DNA from: a virus
Taxonomy: Duplodnaviria > Caudoviricetes
Direction: 5' to 3' (one strand)
Length of the DNA stretch: 64,000 nt
IMG/VR virus record: IMGVR_UViG_3300032280_000786
Location: 1-64,000 of that record
A program made the translations under genes and the position numbers. Shown here in pieces: positions 1,077 to 48,850 of the stretch. Every line of letters begins with the position of its first letter. Positions within the stretch are counted from its first letter, which is position 1. The notes beneath the pieces were generated by a model, which did no database searches, was not told where the DNA came from, and was given only the letters and a program-made list of their open reading frames with translations.

Positions 1077-1614
1077 TTAAAATAAATTCTAACTTTTTCT
1101 TTGAATTTTCACTTATTTTGGATGAATTTATCGATATAATATATGATTTTATAATATCTTCACTTTTAATTTTTTCGACTTTTTGTGATATTACTCCTAC
1201 TAGTAAATCCTCATCCTCACCATATTTTTCCAAAATCCTTACCAATTTATGATTGGTTTTATAGTTTTGAATATTTTTACTTGTAGTATTGGATTTTAGT
1301 TCATCAATTCTATTGTCAATTACTTCCCAATCTTTCAAATCTGCTTTTAAACTTTCTAATAGTTTTGCTTGTTCTTTGATAGTTTTTTCATCTAATAAGC
1401 TTAAAATCGCATCTGCGGCCATTTCTTTTCCTTTTATCTTAATCAATCCGGCTCTTTGATATTTATCAACGGGTCCGTACATTTCAATTGATAAAAATTG
1501 TTCTAATAGATTGATTACTTTTAATCTAAAAAGATCTGCTTCATCTATTTTGTGTTCTACTTCTGTTGGTTTTTCACCAACTGGATAGTTTGATATATTA
1601 CTAAATTTCTTCAT
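1057..1614 (-). CDS. Hypothetical protein
   Basis: 185-aa ORF, co-oriented with neighbours; no recognisable motif. Confidence 0.75.
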   Translation of the reverse strand: MKKFSNISNYPVGEKPTEVEHKIDEADLFRLKVINLLEQFLSIEMYGPVDKYQRAGLIKIKGKEMAADAILSLLDEKTIKEQAKLLESLKADLKDWEVIDNRIDELKSNTTSKNIQNYKTNHKLVRILEKYGEDEDLLVGVISQKVEKIKSEDIIKSYIISINSSKISENSKKKLEFILNEKIKQ

Positions 1615-1627
1615 AATTTATATTTTT

Positions 1628-2290
1628 TTATTTAGAGTTTTTATATTCATCATATACTTTAGAAAACTCTTCATCTGACATACCTTTATACTTTTCCGCA
1701 CCATTTAATATAGCAGCCCAAGCAAAACCAGTCATATTATTAAGATCTACTCCAAACTCTTCTAGGAAATCATCTACTGTCATTTCAGAATCATCACCAA
1801 GAATTCTTAATTTATTTTCTAATTCAATAGATAAATCAATATTTGAATCTTCTTCGTTAAATTCTTCATCTTCTTGAGAATATAGATAATCGTCAAATTG
1901 TTCAACAAAATCATTCTCATCAATTGGATCTTTATAGTAATCGGAATTTTTAAAATCCTCAATTCTATTATAACTTAAATCTCCCCATCCTTTATCTTTC
2001 ATTAGAGATAGTATTAAGTCTTCATCTTCTACAGACTCACCTAACCAAGAAGGTTTACCCATACCATCTTGCCAACCACCTCTGCTATCGTTACTATCAT
2101 CATAACGTTCGTCATCTCTTGGATACATTCCGTCTGGATCTTCTTTACGAGATCTTTTTTCTCTTTCTTCTCTTTTTTTAGCATCTTTTTTAGCACTATG
2201 AGGGAAGTTAGAAATCTGATTTCTTTCAGCTCTTTCTTTATCTTGTTTATCAAGATCAGAATAATCTTCAAATGTTTTTAAGTTTTTCAT
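1628..2290 (-). CDS. Acidic hypothetical protein with capsid-targeting-like N-terminus
   Basis: Starts MKNLKTFEDY; TATATA motif 4 nt upstream of ATG. Confidence 0.75.
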   Translation of the reverse strand: MKNLKTFEDYSDLDKQDKERAERNQISNFPHSAKKDAKKREEREKRSRKEDPDGMYPRDDERYDDSNDSRGGWQDGMGKPSWLGESVEDEDLILSLMKDKGWGDLSYNRIEDFKNSDYYKDPIDENDFVEQFDDYLYSQEDEEFNEEDSNIDLSIELENKLRILGDDSEMTVDDFLEEFGVDLNNMTGFAWAAILNGAEKYKGMSDEEFSKVYDEYKNSK

Positions 2291-2303
2291 AATGTATATA
2301 TAA

Positions 2304-2332
2304 AAAAAATCAAGTTAAAAACTTGATTTTTT
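2304..2332. terminator. Bidirectional intrinsic terminator
   Basis: AAAAAATCAAGT-TAAAA-ACTTGATTTTTT just past the stop of 2336..2551. Confidence 0.7.
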
Positions 2333-2335
2333 ATA

Positions 2336-2551
2336 TTAGATCTTACCTTTGTACTCTTGAACATCATTTCGTACTTCTTGTGATAATCTTTTAAGTTCTT
2401 GCATAACCTTTCTTATTCTAGTTCCTGCAGTCTTGTTAGCTCTGATGAAAAACTTCTCAAAGTCATCTTTCAAGTTAAATTTCTTTCCATCTACTTCTAC
2501 TTCTTCAGTAAGAATTTTAACTAATTGGTCATATTTGTCTAAATATTCCAT
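2336..2551 (-). CDS. Histone H1-like (Hc1 family) small basic protein
   Basis: EKFFIRANKTAGTRIRKVMQELKRLSQEVR resembles the GNKAAGTRARK..LEL.K...E.R signature of Bacteroidota Hc1-family proteins. Confidence 0.7.
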   Translation of the reverse strand: MEYLDKYDQLVKILTEEVEVDGKKFNLKDDFEKFFIRANKTAGTRIRKVMQELKRLSQEVRNDVQEYKGKI

Positions 2552-2618
2552 AGTATTTTATTATTTTTTATAGAATATATATTTTATTTTATCATCTCTC
2601 TTCAATTACTCACAGTTA

Positions 2619-3473
2619 TTAATTTAATTCTTGATAATAAAGAACTGAGCCTGCTTTTGCAGTAATTGCACTATTTGCAACCTCAGATGCAAATCTTGCA
2701 GTTACTGTACCATCTACTGAAGGTATAATAAAACCCTCTATAATTGCATTATTACCAACTAATTGACCAGATGTTGCATTCGATGTAGCAGGTAAGTCAT
2801 AAGTAATATTATTTGCATTTCTAGTAGTAGTTGTGGCAGTTAGAGAATATTCACTCATATAACATAACGAAGTTGGTGTAGTTGGTCCTGATACACTGAA
2901 TCTAGATCCTGTTGTAGTTGCTGCTGCCGAATAGTTTATAATAAACTTAAAGTAGTAGCTTTTTCCTGCAATAACTGCAAATGATAGACCTGTTATATTT
3001 GCGATAGAATTTGCAACTGCATTATTATTTATAACATCAGTTCCTAATATAACAACTTGTAAAGCAGAAGATACTGGATTTGTACCTTGTACTAAAGATG
3101 TTTTTAAAGATCCATTATTAGTTAAACACTTGAAACCTTGACCTTCTTGAAATTCAATTTTATCACCAGGTGCCAGTGTACCCACAAATAACTCAAATAA
3201 TGATCCATTATCACTAAAACTAATAGCGACATTTGCATTTACCGTATCTGAATTATAAACACTTAAATAATCAACAATTCTTTGTGTTGATGCACCAGGA
3301 GAAGGAACTAAATCAACGGCAGTTGTATTATTTGTATTTAGAACATTTCTCTTAGGTGTTATGTCAGTTGATGTAGTATCTCTATAAGACGCAAAACATC
3401 TTAATTGATTTGTTGTTACTGTACTTAATAAATCTACTATTATCTTATCTGTTGTATTTGTTAAAATTATCAT
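2619..3473 (-). CDS. Putative tail-fibre-associated virion protein
   Basis: 284 aa, T/S/N/G-rich with beta-strand character; downstream of the collagen fibre gene. Confidence 0.55.
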   Translation of the reverse strand: MIILTNTTDKIIVDLLSTVTTNQLRCFASYRDTTSTDITPKRNVLNTNNTTAVDLVPSPGASTQRIVDYLSVYNSDTVNANVAISFSDNGSLFELFVGTLAPGDKIEFQEGQGFKCLTNNGSLKTSLVQGTNPVSSALQVVILGTDVINNNAVANSIANITGLSFAVIAGKSYYFKFIINYSAAATTTGSRFSVSGPTTPTSLCYMSEYSLTATTTTRNANNITYDLPATSNATSGQLVGNNAIIEGFIIPSVDGTVTARFASEVANSAITAKAGSVLYYQELN

Positions 3474-6600: not shown

Positions 6601-7572
6601 ATTTTTTCTACCCCATTGAAATACTTTAATTGGGTTATATAAACTCATATCATTTTCCCAATATAAGATATTATCATAGTTGGTGCTTACTATATTTGTA
6701 TTTCTCTCATTACGATAAATAATTCTATCATTAACAATATCATATTTTACTTCATCATAAGAAATATTATAAAATGAAATATAATTGTTAGGATCAAGTA
6801 AACTCCATTCAGATGTATCTAAATCTATTACACTTAGTGAATCATTAACTACAGAAGTTCCTTTTACTTCCCAAACATAGCCACCCCATACTACTTTATC
6901 TCCATTAACATATGATGAAACAGAAGAATAATCAAAAAATTGATAATCAGTATATTTTGGTGTAAAGAAAATACCAGTACCAACCTCAGATAATTTATTA
7001 TTTTCTAAAGCTTGTATAAATATAGTAGTGCCAATATAACCAGTTGTATATAAGTTTTGATCACATTGACTAACTTTATAAATTGTACCAACAATTAATG
7101 AATTAGTATTAATTAATGTTTGTAGATCTGAACGTACAATTTCAGTTACTGTGGTTCCATTGGCACCTGTTGGACCTTGACTTCCAGTAGGACCTATAGG
7201 ACCTGTTGGTCCTTGTATTCCCTGACTACCTGTTGCACCAGTTGAACCGGTCGGTCCTTGACTTCCTGTTGCACCAGTTGAACCGGTCGGTCCTTGACTT
7301 CCTGTTGCACCAGTTGAACCTTGACTACCTGTTGCACCAGTTGAACCTTGACTACCTGTAGGACCTATTGGACCTTGACTTCCTGTTGCACCTGTAGGAC
7401 CTTGAATACCATCTTGGCCAGCGGAACCGGTTGGTCCTTGTGGTCCTATAGAAAAAGTACCACCACCTAAGTTTAAAAGATTACCAAAACCATCATAATA
7501 TAAACCACCGACAATCTGTACTAATCTTCCAAATGTTCCGCTTACTGTTGCACCAAATAGTGAATTAGACAT
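3649..7572 (-). CDS. Collagen-like tail fibre protein (1307 aa)
   Basis: Four or more (G-X-Y)n blocks (GPTGSQGATG...), a Gln-periodic solenoid and beta-rich distal domains. Confidence 0.85.
7215..7400 (-). repeat. Near-identical 27/36-nt tandem DNA repeats encoding collagen triplets
   Basis: CCTGTTGCACCAGTTGAACC recurs several times at 36- and 27-nt spacing. Confidence 0.8.
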
Positions 7573-8434
7573 CTACTAGTTTATAATTTTTAAATTTTTC
7601 ACTTTTTGAGTGTGTTCTATATCGTATTGTTTTGTTCTTAATACCGAGTACTTTTTCTGCTTCTGCATAGGAGTTATATATAATACCATCAATTTCAATT
7701 TTTTTACCACCTAATAACATCTCAGCAATTTTTATCTTCGTCTCTTCACTACATGAAAAATCTGACTTATTTGGTTTTTTACCAAGGTGTGTCTGTCTAT
7801 TCTTCTCTTTAGATTCATCACTATGTTTTTTACCTTTAAATCCAGATTCTTTATTAAGTCTATGTTTATTTCCTTTACTTGATTCACTTATTTTATTTTT
7901 TGCATCTGTTGTATGTTTATATCCCATTGCAAATTTATTACCTACAACTCCTTTATGTCCTAACGCATTCTTATTATTCATTCCTAAAATACTTAATTTA
8001 TTTTTTGTCTCTATACTATGTTTATTTCCAGTGTTTGATTCACTTATTCTATCTTTAGTCTCAGTAGTAAGTACTCTACCTTTTAATGAATTAGATATTT
8101 TTAACTTTGTTTCATCAGATTTAATTATATTAAGACTACCATCACCTCCATCAGTCATGTTACATAGTGTTCCTTTACCAATATCTCTTCTACCATATAA
8201 TGAAACAAACTCAATTTCTTTTAATTTAGCTATATCATATGTTAGATCATCAAGTATTATTTCAACTACATATTTTGATTTATTAGTTATACTTTTCCAA
8301 TATTTATTTCTATTTGATGTATCATACGCTCTACCATAAGAATTAGGCTTTTCTTTTTTAGAAAAACCTCCTATACCTATATAAAAAACTTCATCTTTAT
8401 CTAATCTAATATGTCTGTATAAATAACCCATCAA
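7565..8434 (-). CDS. GIY-YIG homing endonuclease with NUMOD3-like repeats
   Basis: [30 protein letters not shown], repeated H..ETK.KIS motifs; probable ATG at 8431. Confidence 0.9.
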
Positions 8435-19307: not shown

Positions 19308-20189
19308 ATGAAGTATTTAAAAAGATTTGATGAACGATTAGGTATATCTCAAGACATGGAACAACAAGTCGAAGGTTATATGAAAATTATTAGAGAAAGA
19401 CCTATTTCTAAAGTTTTTAAATTACTTTATCAATGTGATTTAGGTAGTTACTTTTTCAAATTAGTTATTGACTCAAAGATAAGTTCAGAAGGTTTTTTTA
19501 CAGGATCTCCTACCTACATAGGTGATTTAGAGATATATTTAAAAGATAGAGAAGATGAATCTACATTATTACATGAGGTTAAACATTTAGATTATTATTT
19601 AAGAAAGAAAGGTAAAACTAAGAATATCTATAATAGAATGGAGAGATCTATATCTAATAGTGATGAGAAAAAAGTTAGTAAAAGAACTCTAGGATTATTG
19701 GAACATATTTTTTATATCTATGATGAGAATGAATTTCAATCTAAATACACATCATTTTATAAAGAATTTGATTTATTTCTATCAAAACAGAATAAGGAAT
19801 TTACTACAACTGAAATAAGAGAACTATTTTTTGATTATAAAAAATGGAGTGACGATACTACATTTAGTTGGTATACCGTGGCGAGTGACTATAATTTCAC
19901 CTTTGATAAGTTTGTTGATAAAGATGAGTTAAGAGTTGTATTTAATTATATTATTTCAGAACATTCAAGAAAAACTTTTAAAAATCCTTATTTAGATTTT
20001 CTTAGTTACTTGGCAGCAGACATAAAGAAAAATATAAAAATTAGGTTTAAGTTATTTACTGATAGAGAAAAGTTAGAAATAGAAAAAGTAATAAAATTCT
20101 TTGAAAAAGATATAAGTAGAAGAATACAAAAGTATAAAAAAAGAATGTCACGTATAGTAACTTTAGCGTGTGAAAAATATGTAAAATAA
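19308..20189 (+). CDS. HEXXH-motif (zincin-like) protein with capsid-targeting-like N-terminus
   Basis: MKYLKRFDE; STLLHEVKHLDY; downstream ENEFQS. Confidence 0.65.
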   Translation: MKYLKRFDERLGISQDMEQQVEGYMKIIRERPISKVFKLLYQCDLGSYFFKLVIDSKISSEGFFTGSPTYIGDLEIYLKDREDESTLLHEVKHLDYYLRKKGKTKNIYNRMERSISNSDEKKVSKRTLGLLEHIFYIYDENEFQSKYTSFYKEFDLFLSKQNKEFTTTEIRELFFDYKKWSDDTTFSWYTVASDYNFTFDKFVDKDELRVVFNYIISEHSRKTFKNPYLDFLSYLAADIKKNIKIRFKLFTDREKLEIEKVIKFFEKDISRRIQKYKKRMSRIVTLACEKYVK

Positions 20190-20215
20190 AAAAGAGAACT
20201 AATGTTCTCTTTTTT
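20188..20215. terminator. Bidirectional intrinsic terminator
   Basis: AAAAAAGAGAAC-TAAT-GTTCTCTTTTTT between convergent genes. Confidence 0.85.
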
Positions 20216-21589
20216 TTAATCTTCTAATCCTTCTGTTTTCTTTGTTGAAATCATATAGTTAAATCTACTTGATAGATCAAACTTATATTTAGCAGTTAAT
20301 CTACCCGACATCTCGTGACTAAACTTAACTACGATTGTCATCTCTAATAATTTTTTATCATCTAATCCTAAAATCATTTTAACTTTAAAATCATTATTCT
20401 CTTCTTCTTCACTAACCGTAAAGTTTACGTGATAATCAAACTTAATCTTTAAATCATCATAATTTGTACGGAAGAAATCTCTCTCTGGTAAATAGTTGAA
20501 TATATTACCATTACCACTTAAATAATAAACTGGTCTTTCAGTACAACCCATCTTATCAATAAGTACTTTAAATAATTTCATTTTAACTGCACCTTCAGCT
20601 GATTTGAATCCGTCATCTAACTTTTTAATGTCATCTACAAAATTAGATTTTAATGATGTTGTAAATAAGTTTTCTAAGATTTTAGAATTTAATATAACTA
20701 TTTTAACCTCAGACCATTCTTGATAAACTCTTTCTGGATCCATAAAACAATTATCTCTATTCTTCCATATTTCTGACATCAAATCAGGAAATTTAAGAAT
20801 GTTTTTATTGAAATCTTTAATGAATTCTCCTAAGTGTTTGTATTTATGATCTGAATGTCTTAAATCAAAGTACTCAAAGTAACCTAAACTTTCAATTCTT
20901 TTAGAATCAATAAACTTTTCAATGTGTAATTGAATGTTTTTATTTGCATTCTCATATAATATTCTAACCCACTCTTGAGTTAATTTATCCCATTTAGGTA
21001 AGTATTCTTGTTTAAATAGTAAATCTAAATCTTGTCCAATCAATTCTTCTGCAAATGTATTGAACGAAGCAGTTTTTTGAGAGGATAAGTTTTTATTTAA
21101 AAAGAAAGAGTATTGATTACCATTATCTAATTCAATAATAAGATCTTCCTCGTGGTCATCATCTTTACTTAAATTCCAATATACATTTGAGATCTCTTCT
21201 GATGTTAACTTTGTATCTGGTAAAAGTTTATCAATGATACTTCTTGATATTGTTCTTGAATCTATAAGTATCTTCCAATCTTTTTCTATATCAAAAGTTA
21301 GAGATTCAAAAGTACTATTTATTTTACTTGTATCATCATCTTCAACACACTTACCATCTACAAACTTACCTAGTTTTAATCTATTTTTTGCTAATAATAA
21401 ATTTTTTAGGTCTGTTAAGAATATATTTGAATTTTCACTATATCGTGCCTTTAATCCTCTATCTAAAATTGAGTCTAAAAATTCATTATTGATTAATAGC
21501 ATAGAAACACAAATATCTCTTACAACATTTTTAACGGTTGTATTTTCTTTAGATTCTTTAAATAAGTAATATTTTTTAAGCCATTTCAT
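20216..21589 (-). CDS. Hypothetical protein with capsid-targeting-like N-terminus
   Basis: MKWLKKYYLFKE; 457 aa. Confidence 0.75.
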   Translation of the reverse strand: MKWLKKYYLFKESKENTTVKNVVRDICVSMLLINNEFLDSILDRGLKARYSENSNIFLTDLKNLLLAKNRLKLGKFVDGKCVEDDDTSKINSTFESLTFDIEKDWKILIDSRTISRSIIDKLLPDTKLTSEEISNVYWNLSKDDDHEEDLIIELDNGNQYSFFLNKNLSSQKTASFNTFAEELIGQDLDLLFKQEYLPKWDKLTQEWVRILYENANKNIQLHIEKFIDSKRIESLGYFEYFDLRHSDHKYKHLGEFIKDFNKNILKFPDLMSEIWKNRDNCFMDPERVYQEWSEVKIVILNSKILENLFTTSLKSNFVDDIKKLDDGFKSAEGAVKMKLFKVLIDKMGCTERPVYYLSGNGNIFNYLPERDFFRTNYDDLKIKFDYHVNFTVSEEEENNDFKVKMILGLDDKKLLEMTIVVKFSHEMSGRLTAKYKFDLSSRFNYMISTKKTEGLED

Positions 21590-30295: not shown

Positions 30296-30784
30296 ATGGA
30301 AAATTTATCTTTAATAGAATTGTACCAAATTAAAAGTCGTTTGATTAAAGAATCAATGATTGAGGAACCATTATGGTTTGAAGTTTTAGAATCAATTAAA
30401 TCAATTGAAGATAAAATATTTGAATCTACATCCGCAACGGGTGGTCCCGTTGTTGGTGGAGGCGGTGGAATGACTGGTAACCCAGTTGATTTAGGTAGAA
30501 CTCCACTTGGTCCTAAATGGGCTTCTGGTGGTGGAGATGATAAAAGTTATATTAATGCACCTTATAACCCAGGTGGTGCTGACAGAATGATGCAAAGAAT
30601 TCCTGTGATGAGTAAAGACCACGGACCTAGAACCGGTAAAAAGTCAAGAGAGAAAAAACTTGACATTAAAGCTTTAAAACAAGCTTTGGCTAAGAGAAAG
30701 GATTTTCAAAGACAAGAAGGCGAGAAAAAAGTTATGAACTTTGATAACTTCACTAAAGATGAAATAAATACTATTAAGAAGTAA
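30296..30784 (+). CDS. Hypothetical protein (Gly-rich middle)
   Basis: 162 aa, preceded by ATATATAGTTTATG. Confidence 0.75.
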   Translation: MENLSLIELYQIKSRLIKESMIEEPLWFEVLESIKSIEDKIFESTSATGGPVVGGGGGMTGNPVDLGRTPLGPKWASGGGDDKSYINAPYNPGGADRMMQRIPVMSKDHGPRTGKKSREKKLDIKALKQALAKRKDFQRQEGEKKVMNFDNFTKDEINTIKK

Positions 30785-30951
30785 TGAAGTATATTAAGTT
30801 ATTTGAAGACATACATATACACGATAGATGGGAACAACAATCTATCGAAGAACAAGATATAGAAGAATTCGCAGAAACTTTATTTGTAAATCTATTAGAT
30901 GATGGATTCACGGTAGATACTGATCGCAGGAGGTTATATATGGAAATATAA
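30784..30951 (+). CDS. 55-aa acidic protein with capsid-targeting-like N-terminus
   Basis: Hand-found MKYIKLFEDIHIHDRWEQQ...; TAATG overlap with the previous gene. Confidence 0.7.
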   Translation: MKYIKLFEDIHIHDRWEQQSIEEQDIEEFAETLFVNLLDDGFTVDTDRRRLYMEI

Positions 30952-30998
30952 ACAAATTGCAAAATAATTTGTATAAATAAAAAAAATAATTCATAAGA

Positions 30999-31547
30999 AT
31001 GTTTAAAACAGAAAAAGTAATAATTATCGGCCCTTCGGGGTCGGGTTAAGGAAAAGATTATTTAATGAGAAAATTAGCAGAGAAAGGTATGAAACCTTGC
31101 TTAAAATGGACTACAAGACCTATAAGAAAATTTGAAAAACAAGGAGTAAATTATAATTTTGTAAATGAACAATTATTTTTACAAACAATAAATGAAGACA
31201 AGTTTTTATCTTGTCAAAAATTTGAAGTAACTCCTGAAAATTCAGAGCCTCAAACTTGGTACTACGGTATTACACTTGAAGAGTTTCACAATTCGGATAT
31301 TTTTATTATGACACCTGGTGAATTTAGAGATTTACCTGCAGAATTAAGAAAAGGTTGTTGTGTTGTTTATTTGAACATAGACAGAGAAACAAGAGAGAAA
31401 CGACTACATAATAGAAAAGATAAAAATGATTCAATACAACGAAGATTAGATGCAGATGAAGAAGATTTTAAACAAAGTTTTGATTATGATTTAGGAATAA
31501 CAGATCCAGACTTTGGAGCAGATGATGTTTATTCACTAATAGATTAA
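30999..31547 (+). CDS. gmk: Guanylate kinase-like protein interrupted by an in-frame TAA (31047-31049) inside Walker A
   Basis: MFKTEKVIIIGPSGSG*GKDYLMRK...TTRPIRKFEKQGVNYNF...YYG...RRLDAD; the ORF track shows only the P-loop-less part from 31065. Confidence 0.8.
31027..31044 (+). promoter_or_regulatory. 7-bp RNA hairpin with C(UUCG)G tetraloop before the in-frame stop
   Basis: UCGGCCC-UUCG-GGGUCGG, two G-U pairs; a GC island in an AT-rich genome. Confidence 0.75.
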
Positions 31548-31574
31548 AAAAAGAGAGCAATTGCTCTCTTTTTT
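31546..31574. terminator. Bidirectional intrinsic terminator
   Basis: AAAAAAAGAGAGC-AATT-GCTCTCTTTTTT. Confidence 0.85.
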
Positions 31575-31578
31575 ATTA

Positions 31579-41315: not shown

Positions 41316-41873
41316 ATGAAATACTTAAAAAAGTTTAATGAAATGTTAGATCCAATGGGAAGTTGGAATCCTATTCAATTAAATAATGAAGAAGATTTAA
41401 AAGAAGAAGTTTGTACTGAATGTGACTGTATACCTTGTCAATGTACTGGCGAAGATGATGATGAAGATGAAGATTTAAAAGAAGGTTTAGATGATCATTT
41501 TAGAGATGTCAGAGTAAATTCTTATCTTAAAATTGCAAGAGATAAATATAAAGGTAAATCCTCAGATGATATTGTTGATACTATTGATAAAGGTAATCCT
41601 GATTTAAGATTTATGGACGATAAAGAAAAGGATTTATTTAGAAGCGCTTGGGATAAAGAGAATACAAAAGGAACCTTTAAATACTTTATGTCTTTATCGA
41701 ATGATGAATTAAAAGATTATCAAAATAACTTTTCACATCATGATTTTGATAATCCTACTGAACATAGTCCAGAATTTGTTGCTTGGAAAAAAGCTTGTGA
41801 GATAAAAAAATGTTTCGATAAAGAACCATTTTATCGTTCTAGAAAAGAAAGTGAATTTCCTAGTAGATACTAA
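41316..41873 (+). CDS. Acidic protein with capsid-targeting-like N-terminus (start revised from 41199)
   Basis: MKYLKKFNE after TAATATATA (41284-41292); CTECDCIPCQC motif. Confidence 0.75.
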   Translation: MKYLKKFNEMLDPMGSWNPIQLNNEEDLKEEVCTECDCIPCQCTGEDDDEDEDLKEGLDDHFRDVRVNSYLKIARDKYKGKSSDDIVDTIDKGNPDLRFMDDKEKDLFRSAWDKENTKGTFKYFMSLSNDELKDYQNNFSHHDFDNPTEHSPEFVAWKKACEIKKCFDKEPFYRSRKESEFPSRY

Positions 41874-41874
41874 T

Positions 41875-41902
41875 AAAAAAGAGAGCTTTTGCTCTCTTTT
41901 TT
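41875..41902. terminator. Bidirectional intrinsic terminator
   Basis: AAAAAAGAGAGC-TTTT-GCTCTCTTTTTT. Confidence 0.85.
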
Positions 41903-41903
41903 T

Positions 41904-42911
41904 TTATCCTAAAATCCATTTAGCATCATGATTTACATTAGTATCATAAAGTGCATATTCAACTTCAACCTTTTCAAATCCGAATTTATCTTCATTAAGT
42001 AAAAACTTAATCAATTCAACATCACGTTCAAAATCTTCTTTACAAGTCATACTATCTCTATAAGTAAGCATATTTACAAACTTACTACCATCTTTAGACT
42101 TCTTAAAGAAGTTTTGTGATAATTTACAAGTACCACCTAGTTCTATTTGTGATGGTTTACTAAATCCTCTACTCGGTGAAAAGAAACCTGCATTTAACTC
42201 TTCAACTAAACCTTCTAAATAAGGCTTTTCTTCTGGTGAGATAACAACACCGATGTGACTTTCAAAGTAACATCCATTTGGTATAGGTTCACCTGTATTA
42301 AAAGTAGGTGCTGCAGGGTGCCAAGGAACTGTTTCTATCTTCTTTCTGACAACTTTATATCCAAATGATGTTAGTTCATTAGCAATACGATTAGCTTCTT
42401 CATAGGCAGTCCTATTGTCTCCAAAGTGTTTTGAACTAGTCATTACATCTTTTAAAGTTCCTTCTTTCATTTCTAAATCTAAAACAATTGGTTTTACTTC
42501 AATAGATTTACAATCTTCTCTAAATTTATCAATAGTAAAATTTGTTTCTAATAGTTTTTCTAAATCAATCGTAATATGTATTTCAAAAGGAAGTGGGAAT
42601 GTTGCCGTTTCTTCTTTTAATTGAAGTTGTGCCCACTTCTTTGATTTTTTATTCAGCATATCATTTACTTCTTCATCAGTAAATCCTAATGAATGTGCAA
42701 TTGAAATGTTCGTTAGATAAACATCGACAATCTCTTCTAGGATCTGTTCTCTATCTGAGAAACGATGATTAGTTCCTGGTGCAGAATCATAAGGTAAAAT
42801 AGCTCTTGCCAATTCACCTACTTCTTCTGCAAGTTTTAATCCTTTTTGTGAAAGTGTTTTCTTATCTTTAATTGATAAGTCCTTTATAAAATCATCTAAA
42901 AATTTATTCAT
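41904..42911 (-). CDS. MazG-like NTP pyrophosphohydrolase fused to an uncharacterised C-terminal domain
   Basis: LKLAEEVGELA...EEIVDV; then FEIHIT...KIETVPW...YFESHI. Confidence 0.75.
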   Translation of the reverse strand: MNKFLDDFIKDLSIKDKKTLSQKGLKLAEEVGELARAILPYDSAPGTNHRFSDREQILEEIVDVYLTNISIAHSLGFTDEEVNDMLNKKSKKWAQLQLKEETATFPLPFEIHITIDLEKLLETNFTIDKFREDCKSIEVKPIVLDLEMKEGTLKDVMTSSKHFGDNRTAYEEANRIANELTSFGYKVVRKKIETVPWHPAAPTFNTGEPIPNGCYFESHIGVVISPEEKPYLEGLVEELNAGFFSPSRGFSKPSQIELGGTCKLSQNFFKKSKDGSKFVNMLTYRDSMTCKEDFERDVELIKFLLNEDKFGFEKVEVEYALYDTNVNHDAKWILG

Positions 42912-47690: not shown

Positions 47691-48122
47691 ATGATAATTA
47701 AAGTAGTAAACTTTGAAACCTTATCAAGACATTATAAAAACTACCAAGACGGTATTACTAACATAACTGATGTTAAAAAGGATTTCATTGCAAAATTAGA
47801 ACCATTCAAAAAAGAATTAGAATCTATTATAAATAGATCCCAAGGTGGTGAAAAACTTGATGATGCAACTCAAGCAAGATTTAATGAATTGCAAGAGTAT
47901 GCAATGAGTGTTGATGAAGAGTTTAAAGCAACGATGAGAAAAATGAATGATGAACTTTCTAAAACTATCTATGGTGAATTAGCACAATTTATTGAAGAAT
48001 GGTCTGAGAAAAATGAAATTGATATGGTTATTGGAAGTACAGAAGTAGTTTTCTTAAAAGATGAACACGATGTAACTGAACAAGTTTTAGAAATCATTAG
48101 AGAAAAAGGATTACACGTATAA
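47691..48122 (+). CDS. Skp/OmpH-like chaperone without a signal peptide
   Basis: IKVVNFETL, long coiled-coil hairpin, I.E..EKNEIDMVI..VVF...DVTEQVL. Confidence 0.7.
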   Translation: MIIKVVNFETLSRHYKNYQDGITNITDVKKDFIAKLEPFKKELESIINRSQGGEKLDDATQARFNELQEYAMSVDEEFKATMRKMNDELSKTIYGELAQFIEEWSEKNEIDMVIGSTEVVFLKDEHDVTEQVLEIIREKGLHV

Positions 48123-48150
48123 AAAAAGAGAGCCATTGGCTCTCTTTTTT
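48121..48150. terminator. Bidirectional intrinsic terminator
   Basis: AAAAAAAGAGAGCC-ATT-GGCTCTCTTTTTT. Confidence 0.85.
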
Positions 48151-48151
48151 A

Positions 48152-48850
48152 TTATCTTTCCCATCCATTATCTTTATGACTTAAATCCTCATTAACAAGT
48201 TCTTCTAACATTTTAGAAATACTATTATATCTAACTTTTCTACCGTATAAGTTTGTAATATATAATTCTGTTTCACTTACATAAAGTACAAAGTCTAAAT
48301 CTACCGTACTAAAGTAATAACTCACATAAAATTTCACTGCATTACCTACACCAAAATACTCACCACGTTCTCTACTATTAGTATCTACTTTTTTAAGATT
48401 TTCTCCTAAAAACTTTATAGTATTAACTTGTTGTTCATTTTCTGTATAACCTTCTGCCAAATCTTCATCATCATTATCAAATGAGTGTGATGTCGTTATT
48501 GCAAATGTAGTTTGATTTGTAACTCTATTATACCCATAATCATGTACACCTAATAATTCTTGATAAAATTCTCTAGCCAAATCATATTGTTTTTGATTTA
48601 CACCTTCATGATGTTCAAATATAAAATCTAATTGTTCTTGATTAAAATCAAATATACTTTCAGGTAAAGTTTTTGCAAACTCTGTAACACTATTAGTTTT
48701 TCTATATTCAAGAATACTTCTTATTGAAGCCATTTCTTCTTGAAGTTCTGTCATTTGTAATTGAAGATCCTCTAACTTAGCTTCTAATGTTTCTGTACTG
48801 ATTGCATTAAGATAACTTGATTCCTTTATAAACTCTAAATACTTTTTCAT
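48152..48850 (-). CDS. Hypothetical protein with T4 CTS-like N-terminus (start revised to 48850)
   Basis: MKKYLEFIKE directly after TATATATACTTAT. Confidence 0.75.
   Translation of the reverse strand: MKKYLEFIKESSYLNAISTETLEAKLEDLQLQMTELQEEMASIRSILEYRKTNSVTEFAKTLPESIFDFNQEQLDFIFEHHEGVNQKQYDLAREFYQELLGVHDYGYNRVTNQTTFAITTSHSFDNDDEDLAEGYTENEQQVNTIKFLGENLKKVDTNSRERGEYFGVGNAVKFYVSYYFSTVDLDFVLYVSETELYITNLYGRKVRYNSISKMLEELVNEDLSHKDNGWER

Follow-up and report, generated by a model that had tools for sequence, protein, structure and literature searches.

The DNA analysed here, called the window below, is a stretch of 64,000 nucleotides comprising positions 1 to 64,000 of the IMG/VR virus record IMGVR_UViG_3300032280_000786, a 90,205-bp contig of estimated 27% completeness that derives from a giant freshwater phage. 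At positions 30,999 to 31,547 it carries a guanylate-kinase-like gene whose reading frame is interrupted by a stop codon within the Walker A motif (P-loop). An earlier note on this DNA had described an open reading frame (ORF) that begins at ATG 30999, meets a TAA, and continues in the same frame into a guanylate-kinase body, and this description is confirmed by the sequence and by Pfam, PHROG, and structural matches. From 30999 to 31070 the sequence reads ATG TTT AAA ACA GAA AAA GTA ATA ATT ATC GGC CCT TCG GGG TCG GGT TAA GGA AAA GAT TAT TTA ATG. The body downstream of the stop matches the Pfam profile Guanylate_kin (PF00625) and PHROG 1815 ('guanylate kinase', E 6e-31), aligns with solved guanylate kinases such as 3tr0, and contains TTRPIRKFEKQGVNYNF, which corresponds to the GMP-binding motif TTRP-x-R of these enzymes. 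The guanylate-kinase Walker A signature, G-x-x-G-x-G-K, is found in the window only if six nucleotides are skipped, and synonymous Gly codons stand on either side of the in-frame stop, which is the layout of a stop-hop. As the earlier note had pointed out, a skip of exactly six nucleotides restores GPSGSGKD, the form that the motif takes in the uninterrupted kinase; skips of other lengths do not.

The 5' end of the gene was read in 86 relatives (3 phage records, 4 IMG/VR contigs, and 79 metagenome contigs), all of which encode an uninterrupted G-x-S/A/G-G-S/G-G-K-D at the same place; compared with them, the window has exactly six extra bases. Seven of these relatives are 87-96% identical to the window in protein and 86-94% in nucleotides over the gene. 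All 82 complete relative genes are open (179-229 aa), and every full-length database protein seen comes from an intact ORF with G-x-x-G-x-G-K-D/S. Moreover, neither the 82 complete loci nor the several hundred proteins seen include another nonsense or frameshift allele. The relatives are uncultured giant phages of 281-642 kb, and four related genomes spanning that size range each contain one copy of the kinase.

Interrupted alleles were traced through 160-aa members, gene calls of the ATG 31065 type, that lie inside clusters of 181-aa proteins. The allele with the 6-nt insertion, designated type A, is represented by the body alleles P0121, P0134, P0145, and P0148 and, according to look-ups, by 20 reported contigs from JGI, ENA, and Logan assemblies of many samples; 14 loci including the window were read. 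Each of the 13 further loci has the same sequence from the ATG through ATCGGCCCTTCGGGGTCGGGTTAAGGAAAAGAT, including the leader, the hairpin described below, and GGT-TAA-GGA, the sole variation among the 14 leaders being a synonymous AAA to AAG change at Lys3 (codon 3). Because the identical sequence occurs in independent assemblies of different samples, the insertion is not the assembly error that the earlier note had allowed for. An assembly or sequencing artefact could be entertained given the metagenomic origin of the contig; however, it is effectively refuted, as the same sequence was obtained from three pipelines, more than 10 samples, and four body alleles, and the contig is otherwise clean (92% coding). 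The 6-nt insertion is real, heritable, and widespread in a single-copy guanylate-kinase gene. In the comparison of orthologues that had been proposed as a check, Gly-stop-Gly and the hairpin are identical throughout the 14 type A loci, whereas the insertion is absent from the 86 relatives and the codon patch from intact alleles.

A nucleotide search of phage records with the window site gave zero matches, an exact 20-mer spanning the site occurs in zero other IMG/VR records, and a degenerate Gly-stop-Gly-Lys-Asp pattern has zero matches in IMG/VR; its single match in a GTDB genome lies at a ribosome-binding site of a Clostridia metagenome-assembled genome and was set aside as chance. Tracing extended to five other truncated kinase calls (two of them by DNA) and left some short calls outside. 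None of the five was kept as a broken allele: P0026 reflects a scaffold N-gap, P0129, P0139, and P0128 are contig ends, and P0273 is truncated at the C-terminus. On one ENA contig (L089:255-275), an N gap just after an intact GPSGSGKDF gives rise to a 160-aa kinase call and so to a false 'truncated' allele. The features of the window locus are collected in Table 1.

Table 1. Features at and around the interrupted kinase gene (window coordinates).
Feature	Position	Strand	Remarks
5' fragment of a 161-aa gene	30784..30921	+	First 46 codons; called as an ORF of 55 aa at 30784-30951; N-terminus MKYIKLFEDIHIHDRWEQQ
3' remnant of a GIY-YIG/NUMOD endonuclease	30923..30967	+	Last 14 codons and stop, ending in IAGGYIWKYKQIAK; tblastn and frame translations
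TATAAA-containing motif TATAAATA	30972..30979	+	About 20 nt 5' of the leader ATG; possible late-type promoter
Start of the type A interrupted reading frame	ATG 30999	+	Opens MFKTEKVIIIGPSGSG, then TAA 31047-31049, then in-frame GKDYLMRK... to TAA 31545-31547
Leader ORF MFKTEKVIIIGPSGSG	30999..31046	+	16 codons; covers strand beta-1 and the first six Walker A residues
C(UUCG)G hairpin of rare codons (ATC GGC CCT TCG GGG TCG G)	31027..31044	+	7 bp including two G-U pairs; -10.9 kcal/mol
GGT (candidate take-off)-TAA-GGA (candidate landing)	31044..31052	+	Nine bases would specify one glycine
Kinase body	31053..31547	+	Walker A lysine (AAA GAT = K D) to TAA stop; intact, guanylate-kinase-like
Internal ATG picked as start by gene callers	31065..31067	+	160-aa product lacking beta-1 and P-loop
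A-run, palindrome AGAGAGCAATTGCTCTCT, and T-run	31546..31575	.	Resembles a bidirectional terminator; closes the kinase gene

A second interrupted form, type B, was found in a cluster that is 69% identical to the window kinase (body alleles P0174 and P0175; 16 reported contigs, 10 loci read). Its leader reads ATG TCT GAA AAA ACA GAA AAA ATA ATA ATT GTA GGC CCT TCG GGG TCG GGG TAA, after which the body is read in the +1 frame as (G)GT AAA GAC TTC TTA ATG. Type B is a 1-nt insertion (GGG-TAA-A) at the same codon as in type A, behind a 17-nt core, GGCCCTTCGGGGTCGGG, that is identical in the two alleles; +1 re-pairing of tRNA-Gly (GGG to GGU, with UAA in the A site) would yield GPSGSGKD in this form as well. 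Directly upstream of type B lies an intact 327-aa ORF (L106:1923-2906) with GIY-YIG, two NUMOD1, and I-HmuI-NUMOD-like domains; its profile matches are PF01541 with 32.1 bits (cut-off 22.6), PF07453 twice, and PF22083 once. When loci L106 and L111 are compared, a block of approx. 1.7 kb (about 1300-3033), which contains a holin gene, the endonuclease, the leader, the interruption, and 32 further bases, is 100% identical, whereas the kinase bodies differ at 67 of 480 nt (14%) and the flanks by 3-20%. Such a block is the hallmark of recent homing of a cassette, co-conversion tracts included. The ORF directly 3' of the type B kinase, on the minus strand, varies between the backgrounds: L106:3509-4552 encodes a 347-aa zinc-ribbon protein (DUF4379/DUF723) and L111:3510-5027 a 505-aa protein with a Glu_synthase domain. 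Both sides of the kinase are insertion hot spots.

Homologous endonucleases also adjoin intact kinases at the same place (L002, L039, L053, L071, L072, and L084), and endonuclease remnants occupy it in L015, L025, L089, and the type A locus L091, which is near-identical to the window and has a longer, frameshifted remnant. The window remnant aligns with the C-termini of intact endonucleases, which end in TAGGFIWKYKQVII (L106) and TAGGYIWKYL (L072) before the stop. It is fused to the beginning of a gene that is intact in L009 (2420-2905, 161 aa, with the same N-terminal MKYIKLFEDIHIHDRWEQQ): a deletion of approx. 320 nt has truncated this gene in the window and joined the fragment to the endonuclease remnant, and the blastn match between the window and its relatives breaks at 30921/30969. 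Among type A loci the endonuclease has decayed via two different deletions, and the kinase bodies there are still open; type A occurs without the endonuclease on the L094, L096, L102, and window backgrounds. As judged from these sequences, the window site lies in a decayed homing-endonuclease cassette, and we assign the insertion an endonuclease-linked origin with high confidence. A second GIY-YIG-like ORF is located elsewhere in the window (7565-8434, minus strand, 289 aa); over residues 5-134 it shares 29% identity with the endonuclease next to the kinase. The immediate neighbours of the kinase in the window were considered as endonucleases and dropped for want of a Pfam or PHROG nuclease match: Pfam gave zero matches for them and for the 158-, 161-, and 165-aa upstream ORFs of other type A loci, and PHROGs gave nothing nuclease-like for them or for the 161-aa protein of L009.

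The type A bodies differ from one another by up to 57 of 480 nt and 17 residues, and they are polyphyletic: on a tree they are interspersed with intact alleles, and the approximately unbiased (AU) test rejects their monophyly (delta lnL 85.5, p 0.0009). In contrast, the segment from approx. 30972 to 31064 is virtually invariant among type A loci, with 5' modules that differ by at most one base. The combination of polyphyletic bodies and near-invariant 5' modules implies that the module moved by gene conversion, and recombination has placed the interrupted module on at least three kinase backgrounds. The flanks vary too: the full upstream gene is present in L094 and L096, and an IS605-type TnpB is present in L102. 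The latter (L102:1451-2635, minus strand, on a 400-kb ENA scaffold) is a 394-aa IS605-type OrfB/TnpB protein with HTH_OrfB_IS605, OrfB_IS605, and Cas12f1-like TNB domains; it lies between a 162-aa gene and the type A kinase, a place taken elsewhere by a 158/161-aa gene or the endonuclease.

The codons that precede the take-off site are rare in this genome and fold, as the earlier note had stated, into a 7-bp C(UUCG)G hairpin that reaches into the take-off codon; its last pair takes the first G of GGT. The type A hairpin is the most stable of 87 family members (mean of the relatives -4.1 kcal/mol, sd 2.2, best -9.9). In the contig, GGC and GGG make up 2.9% and 2.8% of Gly codons, TCG 2.8% of Ser codons, and ATC 12% of Ile codons, and the joint usage of the seven patch codons is 2e-8. 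Intact alleles with a GC-rich patch were not found: G/C-ending codons among the six P-loop codons number 4 in type A, 5 in type B, and 0-3 in 87 intact alleles. In particular, the intact allele L116, whose leader peptide is that of type B and which lies beside no endonuclease, uses GGT CCT TCT GGG TCA GGT AAA. Rare P-loop codons were also considered as a mark of endonuclease-linked alleles generally and rejected (mean numbers of G/C-ending codons of 1.25 and 1.38 among intact alleles, p 0.67). As endonuclease-linked intact alleles are not GC-enriched, the patch accompanies the interruption and is no general mark of endonuclease linkage. Common descent accounts for its presence in both types, and it therefore counts as one evolutionary observation and not two. 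The 17-mer GGCCCTTCGGGGTCGGG has 32 matches in IMG/VR, which are unrelated, lie mostly in GC-rich phage DNA, and in many cases resemble terminator hairpins; two of them are unrelated intact P-loops. Since these matches lie in unrelated DNA, the patch itself is not a mobile signature.

The contig has a GC content of 28.7% and is 92% coding under code 11, with ORFs of up to 1815 aa. TAA terminates 93 of its 107 ORFs (87%), and UAA-G is a normal, dominant terminator. The coding density and this use of TAA rule out an alternative genetic code, and a suppressor tRNA is ruled out as far as the 90-kb contig goes, since neither the window nor that contig contains a tRNA gene. Shine-Dalgarno-like motifs are nearly absent 5' of 95 ORFs on the contig (0-3 matches per motif), and the leaders are A/T-rich, which fits a host independent of such pairing, e.g., one of the Bacteroidota; this near absence argues against Shine-Dalgarno-type frameshift stimulators in this phage. 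Upstream of the leader, the TATAAA is unchanged in 11 of 11 aligned loci (the window and 10 others), interrupted and intact alike; the motif TATAAATA, which is the T4 late-promoter consensus, may act as a promoter. Elements similar to the terminator-like AGAGAGCAATTGCTCTCT are found at 20184-20222, 41867-41907, and 48120-48155, at several convergent gene ends in the window.

The dN/dS ratio of the window body against intact relatives is 0.05-0.10, the same as for intact pairs, and the body has no private amino-acid changes. Interrupted bodies carry 0-2 residues that are unseen in 132 intact bodies (0-1 in type A, where four of four are open), and none of the six interrupted body alleles, which together account for 36 reported contigs, has a further lesion. 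The marks of a decaying pseudogene, namely second lesions, relaxed constraint, and a sporadic distribution, are absent, although this comparison is a weak one because the alleles are young and recombining.

Taken together, these observations suggest, at a probability that we place a shade under even, that an endonuclease-linked protective insertion is accompanied by rescue of the kinase through a low-level +6 stop-hop, a short analogue of the T4 gene 60/MobA cassette. The insertion is part of the 5' module of a free-standing GIY-YIG cassette located just upstream of the kinase, and this module has been copied into several backgrounds; the link between endonuclease and insertion is seen in the sister allele and survives in the window as a remnant. 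The insertion and the rare synonymous codons would disrupt the endonuclease target and protect carrier genomes, in parallel with the T4 gene 60 insert and MobA. A small supply of active kinase would nevertheless be kept up: with the A site occupied by UAA, peptidyl-tRNA-Gly would let go of GGU and pair again with GGA, six bases further on, to give GPSGSGKD; in type B the same tRNA would slip +1 from GGG to GGU. More speculatively, the hop may be assisted if the run of rare codons and the C(UUCG)G hairpin upstream slow the ribosome and the hairpin re-folds behind it. Taken by itself, functional rescue of the kinase by a +6 hop is close to an even call, with the balance tipping slightly to the negative side. 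A bolder version, in which a natural, population-kept one-codon stop-hop and a sister +1 slip behind the same hairpin are both products of a GIY-YIG cassette that protects its own target by a tiny recoding insert in place of an intron, an intein, or a 50-nt gap, and in which the 5' hairpin is a general driver of forward slips over variable distances, is possible but somewhat doubtful.

Several observations favour a gene that still works. The kinase is present as a single copy, and all other relatives have kept it intact, under strong purifying selection (dN/dS approx. 0.05); this codon is the sole one ever broken, and both breaks can be resolved to the exact Walker A by the same P-site tRNA; and type A has outlived the endonuclease on several backgrounds with bodies free of a second lesion. 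Of the minimal 6-nt bypass proposed in the earlier note, a real break, its unchanged maintenance in many samples and backgrounds, the return of the invariant Walker A by a 6-nt skip alone, and (as new elements) the endonuclease cassette context and the sister allele with its +1 slip of the same tRNA-Gly support the idea, whereas the parallels to the hairpin and nascent peptide of T4 do not hold and the suggestion that the site controls kinase output is unsupported.

Other points weigh against the stop-hop. Synthetic stop-hops are reportedly inefficient, at roughly 1% (Weiss et al. 1987). The take-off and landing codons, as the earlier note had recognised, differ at the wobble base (GGU and GGA); a G after UAA makes for strong termination in E. 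coli, and TAA is a normal terminator in this phage as well. The leader of 16 residues is too short for a nascent-peptide signal of the gene 60 type. The candidate stimulatory structures are statistically unremarkable: compared with dinucleotide shuffles of the same 37 nt the type A hairpin is marginal (z -1.9; 11 of 200 shuffles are as good), the type B hairpin (5 bp, -8.3 kcal/mol) is no better than shuffles (z -0.3), and no 3' stimulatory structure was found, the 77 nt after the stop folding like shuffles (z 0.03). The 'shifty stop' of type B is the automatic result of adding one base before T-AAA and is not independent evidence of design. The existence of endonuclease-linked intact alleles indicates that some members of this endonuclease family do without the interruption. 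Moreover, both modules are young (0 substitutions in the 1.7-kb block and 1 in the type A module), intact bodies may reflect nothing but recency and recombination with intact alleles, and a homing endonuclease can push costly alleles.

Many of these points favour a serious rival, one that we nevertheless hold to be somewhat improbable, according to which the interrupted alleles are null or strongly hypomorphic and have been spread by the selfish element. The insertion would then be a repair scar or immunity mutation at the endonuclease target that inactivates the kinase; the allele would spread by riding with the endonuclease or by resisting cleavage, and the bodies would be intact through youth and recombination with intact alleles. 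It is in this form, as an endonuclease-driven null allele, that the pseudogene scar mentioned in the earlier note stays in contention. The unsubstituted type B block, the single synonymous change in the type A module, the automatic type B layout, the unexceptional structures, and the low known hop efficiencies all agree with inactivation. In addition, recombination in the gene is rampant, which means that signals of purifying selection in the bodies can come from intact donors, and P0145 has a private Ala-to-Val change where 132 intact bodies have Ala, Ser, or Thr. However, loss of a single-copy gene that is intact in all other relatives examined and shows a dN/dS of approx. 0.05 should be costly, and breakage is confined to one site among the 82 complete loci and several hundred proteins. 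Type A also persists on the four backgrounds without endonuclease, where the drive is gone and recombination could restore an intact gene, and in the loci in which the endonuclease decayed twice the kinase body did not. Inactivation further leaves the in-frame length of the type A insertion and the regenerated Gly codon unexplained.

Two other explanations keep translation of the body without a hop. Readthrough of UAA by a near-cognate or suppressor tRNA would give GPSGSG-X-GKD, a protein with two extra residues that might retain some activity; the downstream body is in frame, so any readthrough would give a full-length protein, and giant phages often carry many tRNAs. We consider readthrough very improbable: its product departs from the G-x(4)-G-K spacing shared by every relative, a genome with 87% of its ORFs ending in TAA would pay dearly for an ochre suppressor, the 90-kb contig has no tRNA gene, and the +1 sister allele behind the same patch could not be rescued in this way. 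Very unlikely, too, is termination followed by re-initiation at ATG 31065, with the leader as an upstream ORF and a P-loop-less 160-aa protein in a new, non-kinase role. This ATG lies 15 nt past the stop in an A/T-rich context like that of other Shine-Dalgarno-less starts of the phage, gene callers choose it, and both allele types would give the same kind of product; however, the alignment to 3tr0 indicates that the product would lack beta-1, the Walker A lysine, and the start of helix alpha-1 and would probably not fold, and, artefacts apart, the short form is encoded by zero relatives.

Natural short-range bypassing has been sought by the recoding field since 1987, and T4 gene 60 was long an isolated case. 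The locus described here is a minimal candidate in an unusually favourable genetic setting: one and the same codon, in a motif that is invariant in the enzyme, is interrupted in two alleles (+6 and +1), for which a plausible active protein would arise only by exact re-pairing; with a linked homing endonuclease and natural controls, i.e., intact alleles with the same leader peptide, the question can be tested directly with short constructs. If the stop-hop occurs, even the most conserved coding DNA could be open to selfish nucleases at a cost of a few bases, and gene callers would systematically mis-annotate such genes as N-terminally truncated. If it does not, the locus would still be informative, as a record of a homing endonuclease that spreads inactivated versions of a conserved phage gene in lake populations.

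In T4 gene 60 a nascent peptide (KKYK..., 14-30 residues before the take-off) is essential, and the bypass is said to be carried by the MobA element (Bonocora et al. 2011). The bypass is a programmed translational event of 50 nt (PMC5462505) within a MobA homing-endonuclease element, and the insert shields the genome from MobA and in many cases persists once MobA has decayed or been lost (bioRxiv 10.1101/2022.08.31.505936). The window site is similar in several respects: a conserved enzyme gene of a large phage is split by an insert that contains a stop; a Gly take-off codon is directly followed by the stop and, past a non-coding gap, by a Gly landing codon; a C(UUCG)G hairpin is nearby; and the insert is linked to a free-standing homing endonuclease, in a cassette that is copied between genomes, and stays while the endonuclease decays or goes. 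However, the gap is 3 nt (a hop of 6) here and 47 nt (a hop of 50) in T4, the endonuclease is of the GIY-YIG and not the HNH type, the host gene encodes a kinase and not a topoisomerase, and there is no sequence homology. The codons are synonymous GGU and GGA here, whereas T4 has GGA at both sites. In T4 the UUCG hairpin, which includes the stop, folds within the A site on the 3' side of the take-off GGA (PMC5462505), whereas the window hairpin is 5' of the stop and ends on the first base of the take-off codon, so that the analogy drawn in the earlier note is misplaced. A separate 5' stem-loop of gene 60 ends 9 nt before the take-off, and re-pairing of the exiting mRNA has been proposed as the forward driver (bioRxiv 10.1101/2024.12.09.627546). 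The window site has neither a 3' stem-loop nor a nascent-peptide signal, its 16-residue leader lacking the motif, and its bypass and protective role are those of a candidate.

The kinase-linked endonuclease resembles the free-standing GIY-YIG endonucleases of T4-like phages (the Seg family; I-TevI-type GIY-YIG plus NUMOD) in domain architecture, in its intergenic place beside a conserved gene, in the identical cassette with co-conversion tracts found in divergent backgrounds, a sign of recent mobility, and in its decay to remnants. To our knowledge, no linked insertion that breaks the frame of the adjacent gene or brings a stop into it has been described for the Seg family. The GGG-UAA-A of type B is comparable to the shifty stop of prfB, as its P-site codon can re-pair +1 with the stop in the A site and a GGGG 3 nt upstream is placed like the Shine-Dalgarno-like element of prfB; however, phage genes that do without Shine-Dalgarno pairing make a stimulator of the prfB type doubtful. 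'Savior' indels with low-level compensatory frameshifting, e.g., at the G-run of herpes thymidine kinase, are also known (PMC5009743). They share with the window allele the principle of a genome-protecting indel that is tolerated as a few ribosomes restore the frame, although protection here would be against a homing endonuclease and the window allele needs +6 and not +1. Weiss, Dunn, Atkins, and Gesteland reportedly built stop-hop reporters in E. coli in 1987, and tRNA hopping is said to have been described by O'Connor et al. in 1989. Stop-hops in which nine nucleotides give one residue have been demonstrated in synthetic constructs, with no natural occurrences known to the Atkins review of 2016 (PMC5009743). 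In these constructs, as in the window, a codon, a stop, and a synonymous codon form nine bases for one residue, and the P-site peptidyl-tRNA un-pairs and re-pairs with the stop in the A site; they were engineered in E. coli, whereas the layout described here is natural and population-maintained and its hop a candidate. The synthetic stop-hop is a closer mechanistic precedent for the window site than T4 gene 60, and the savior-indel concept is also close.

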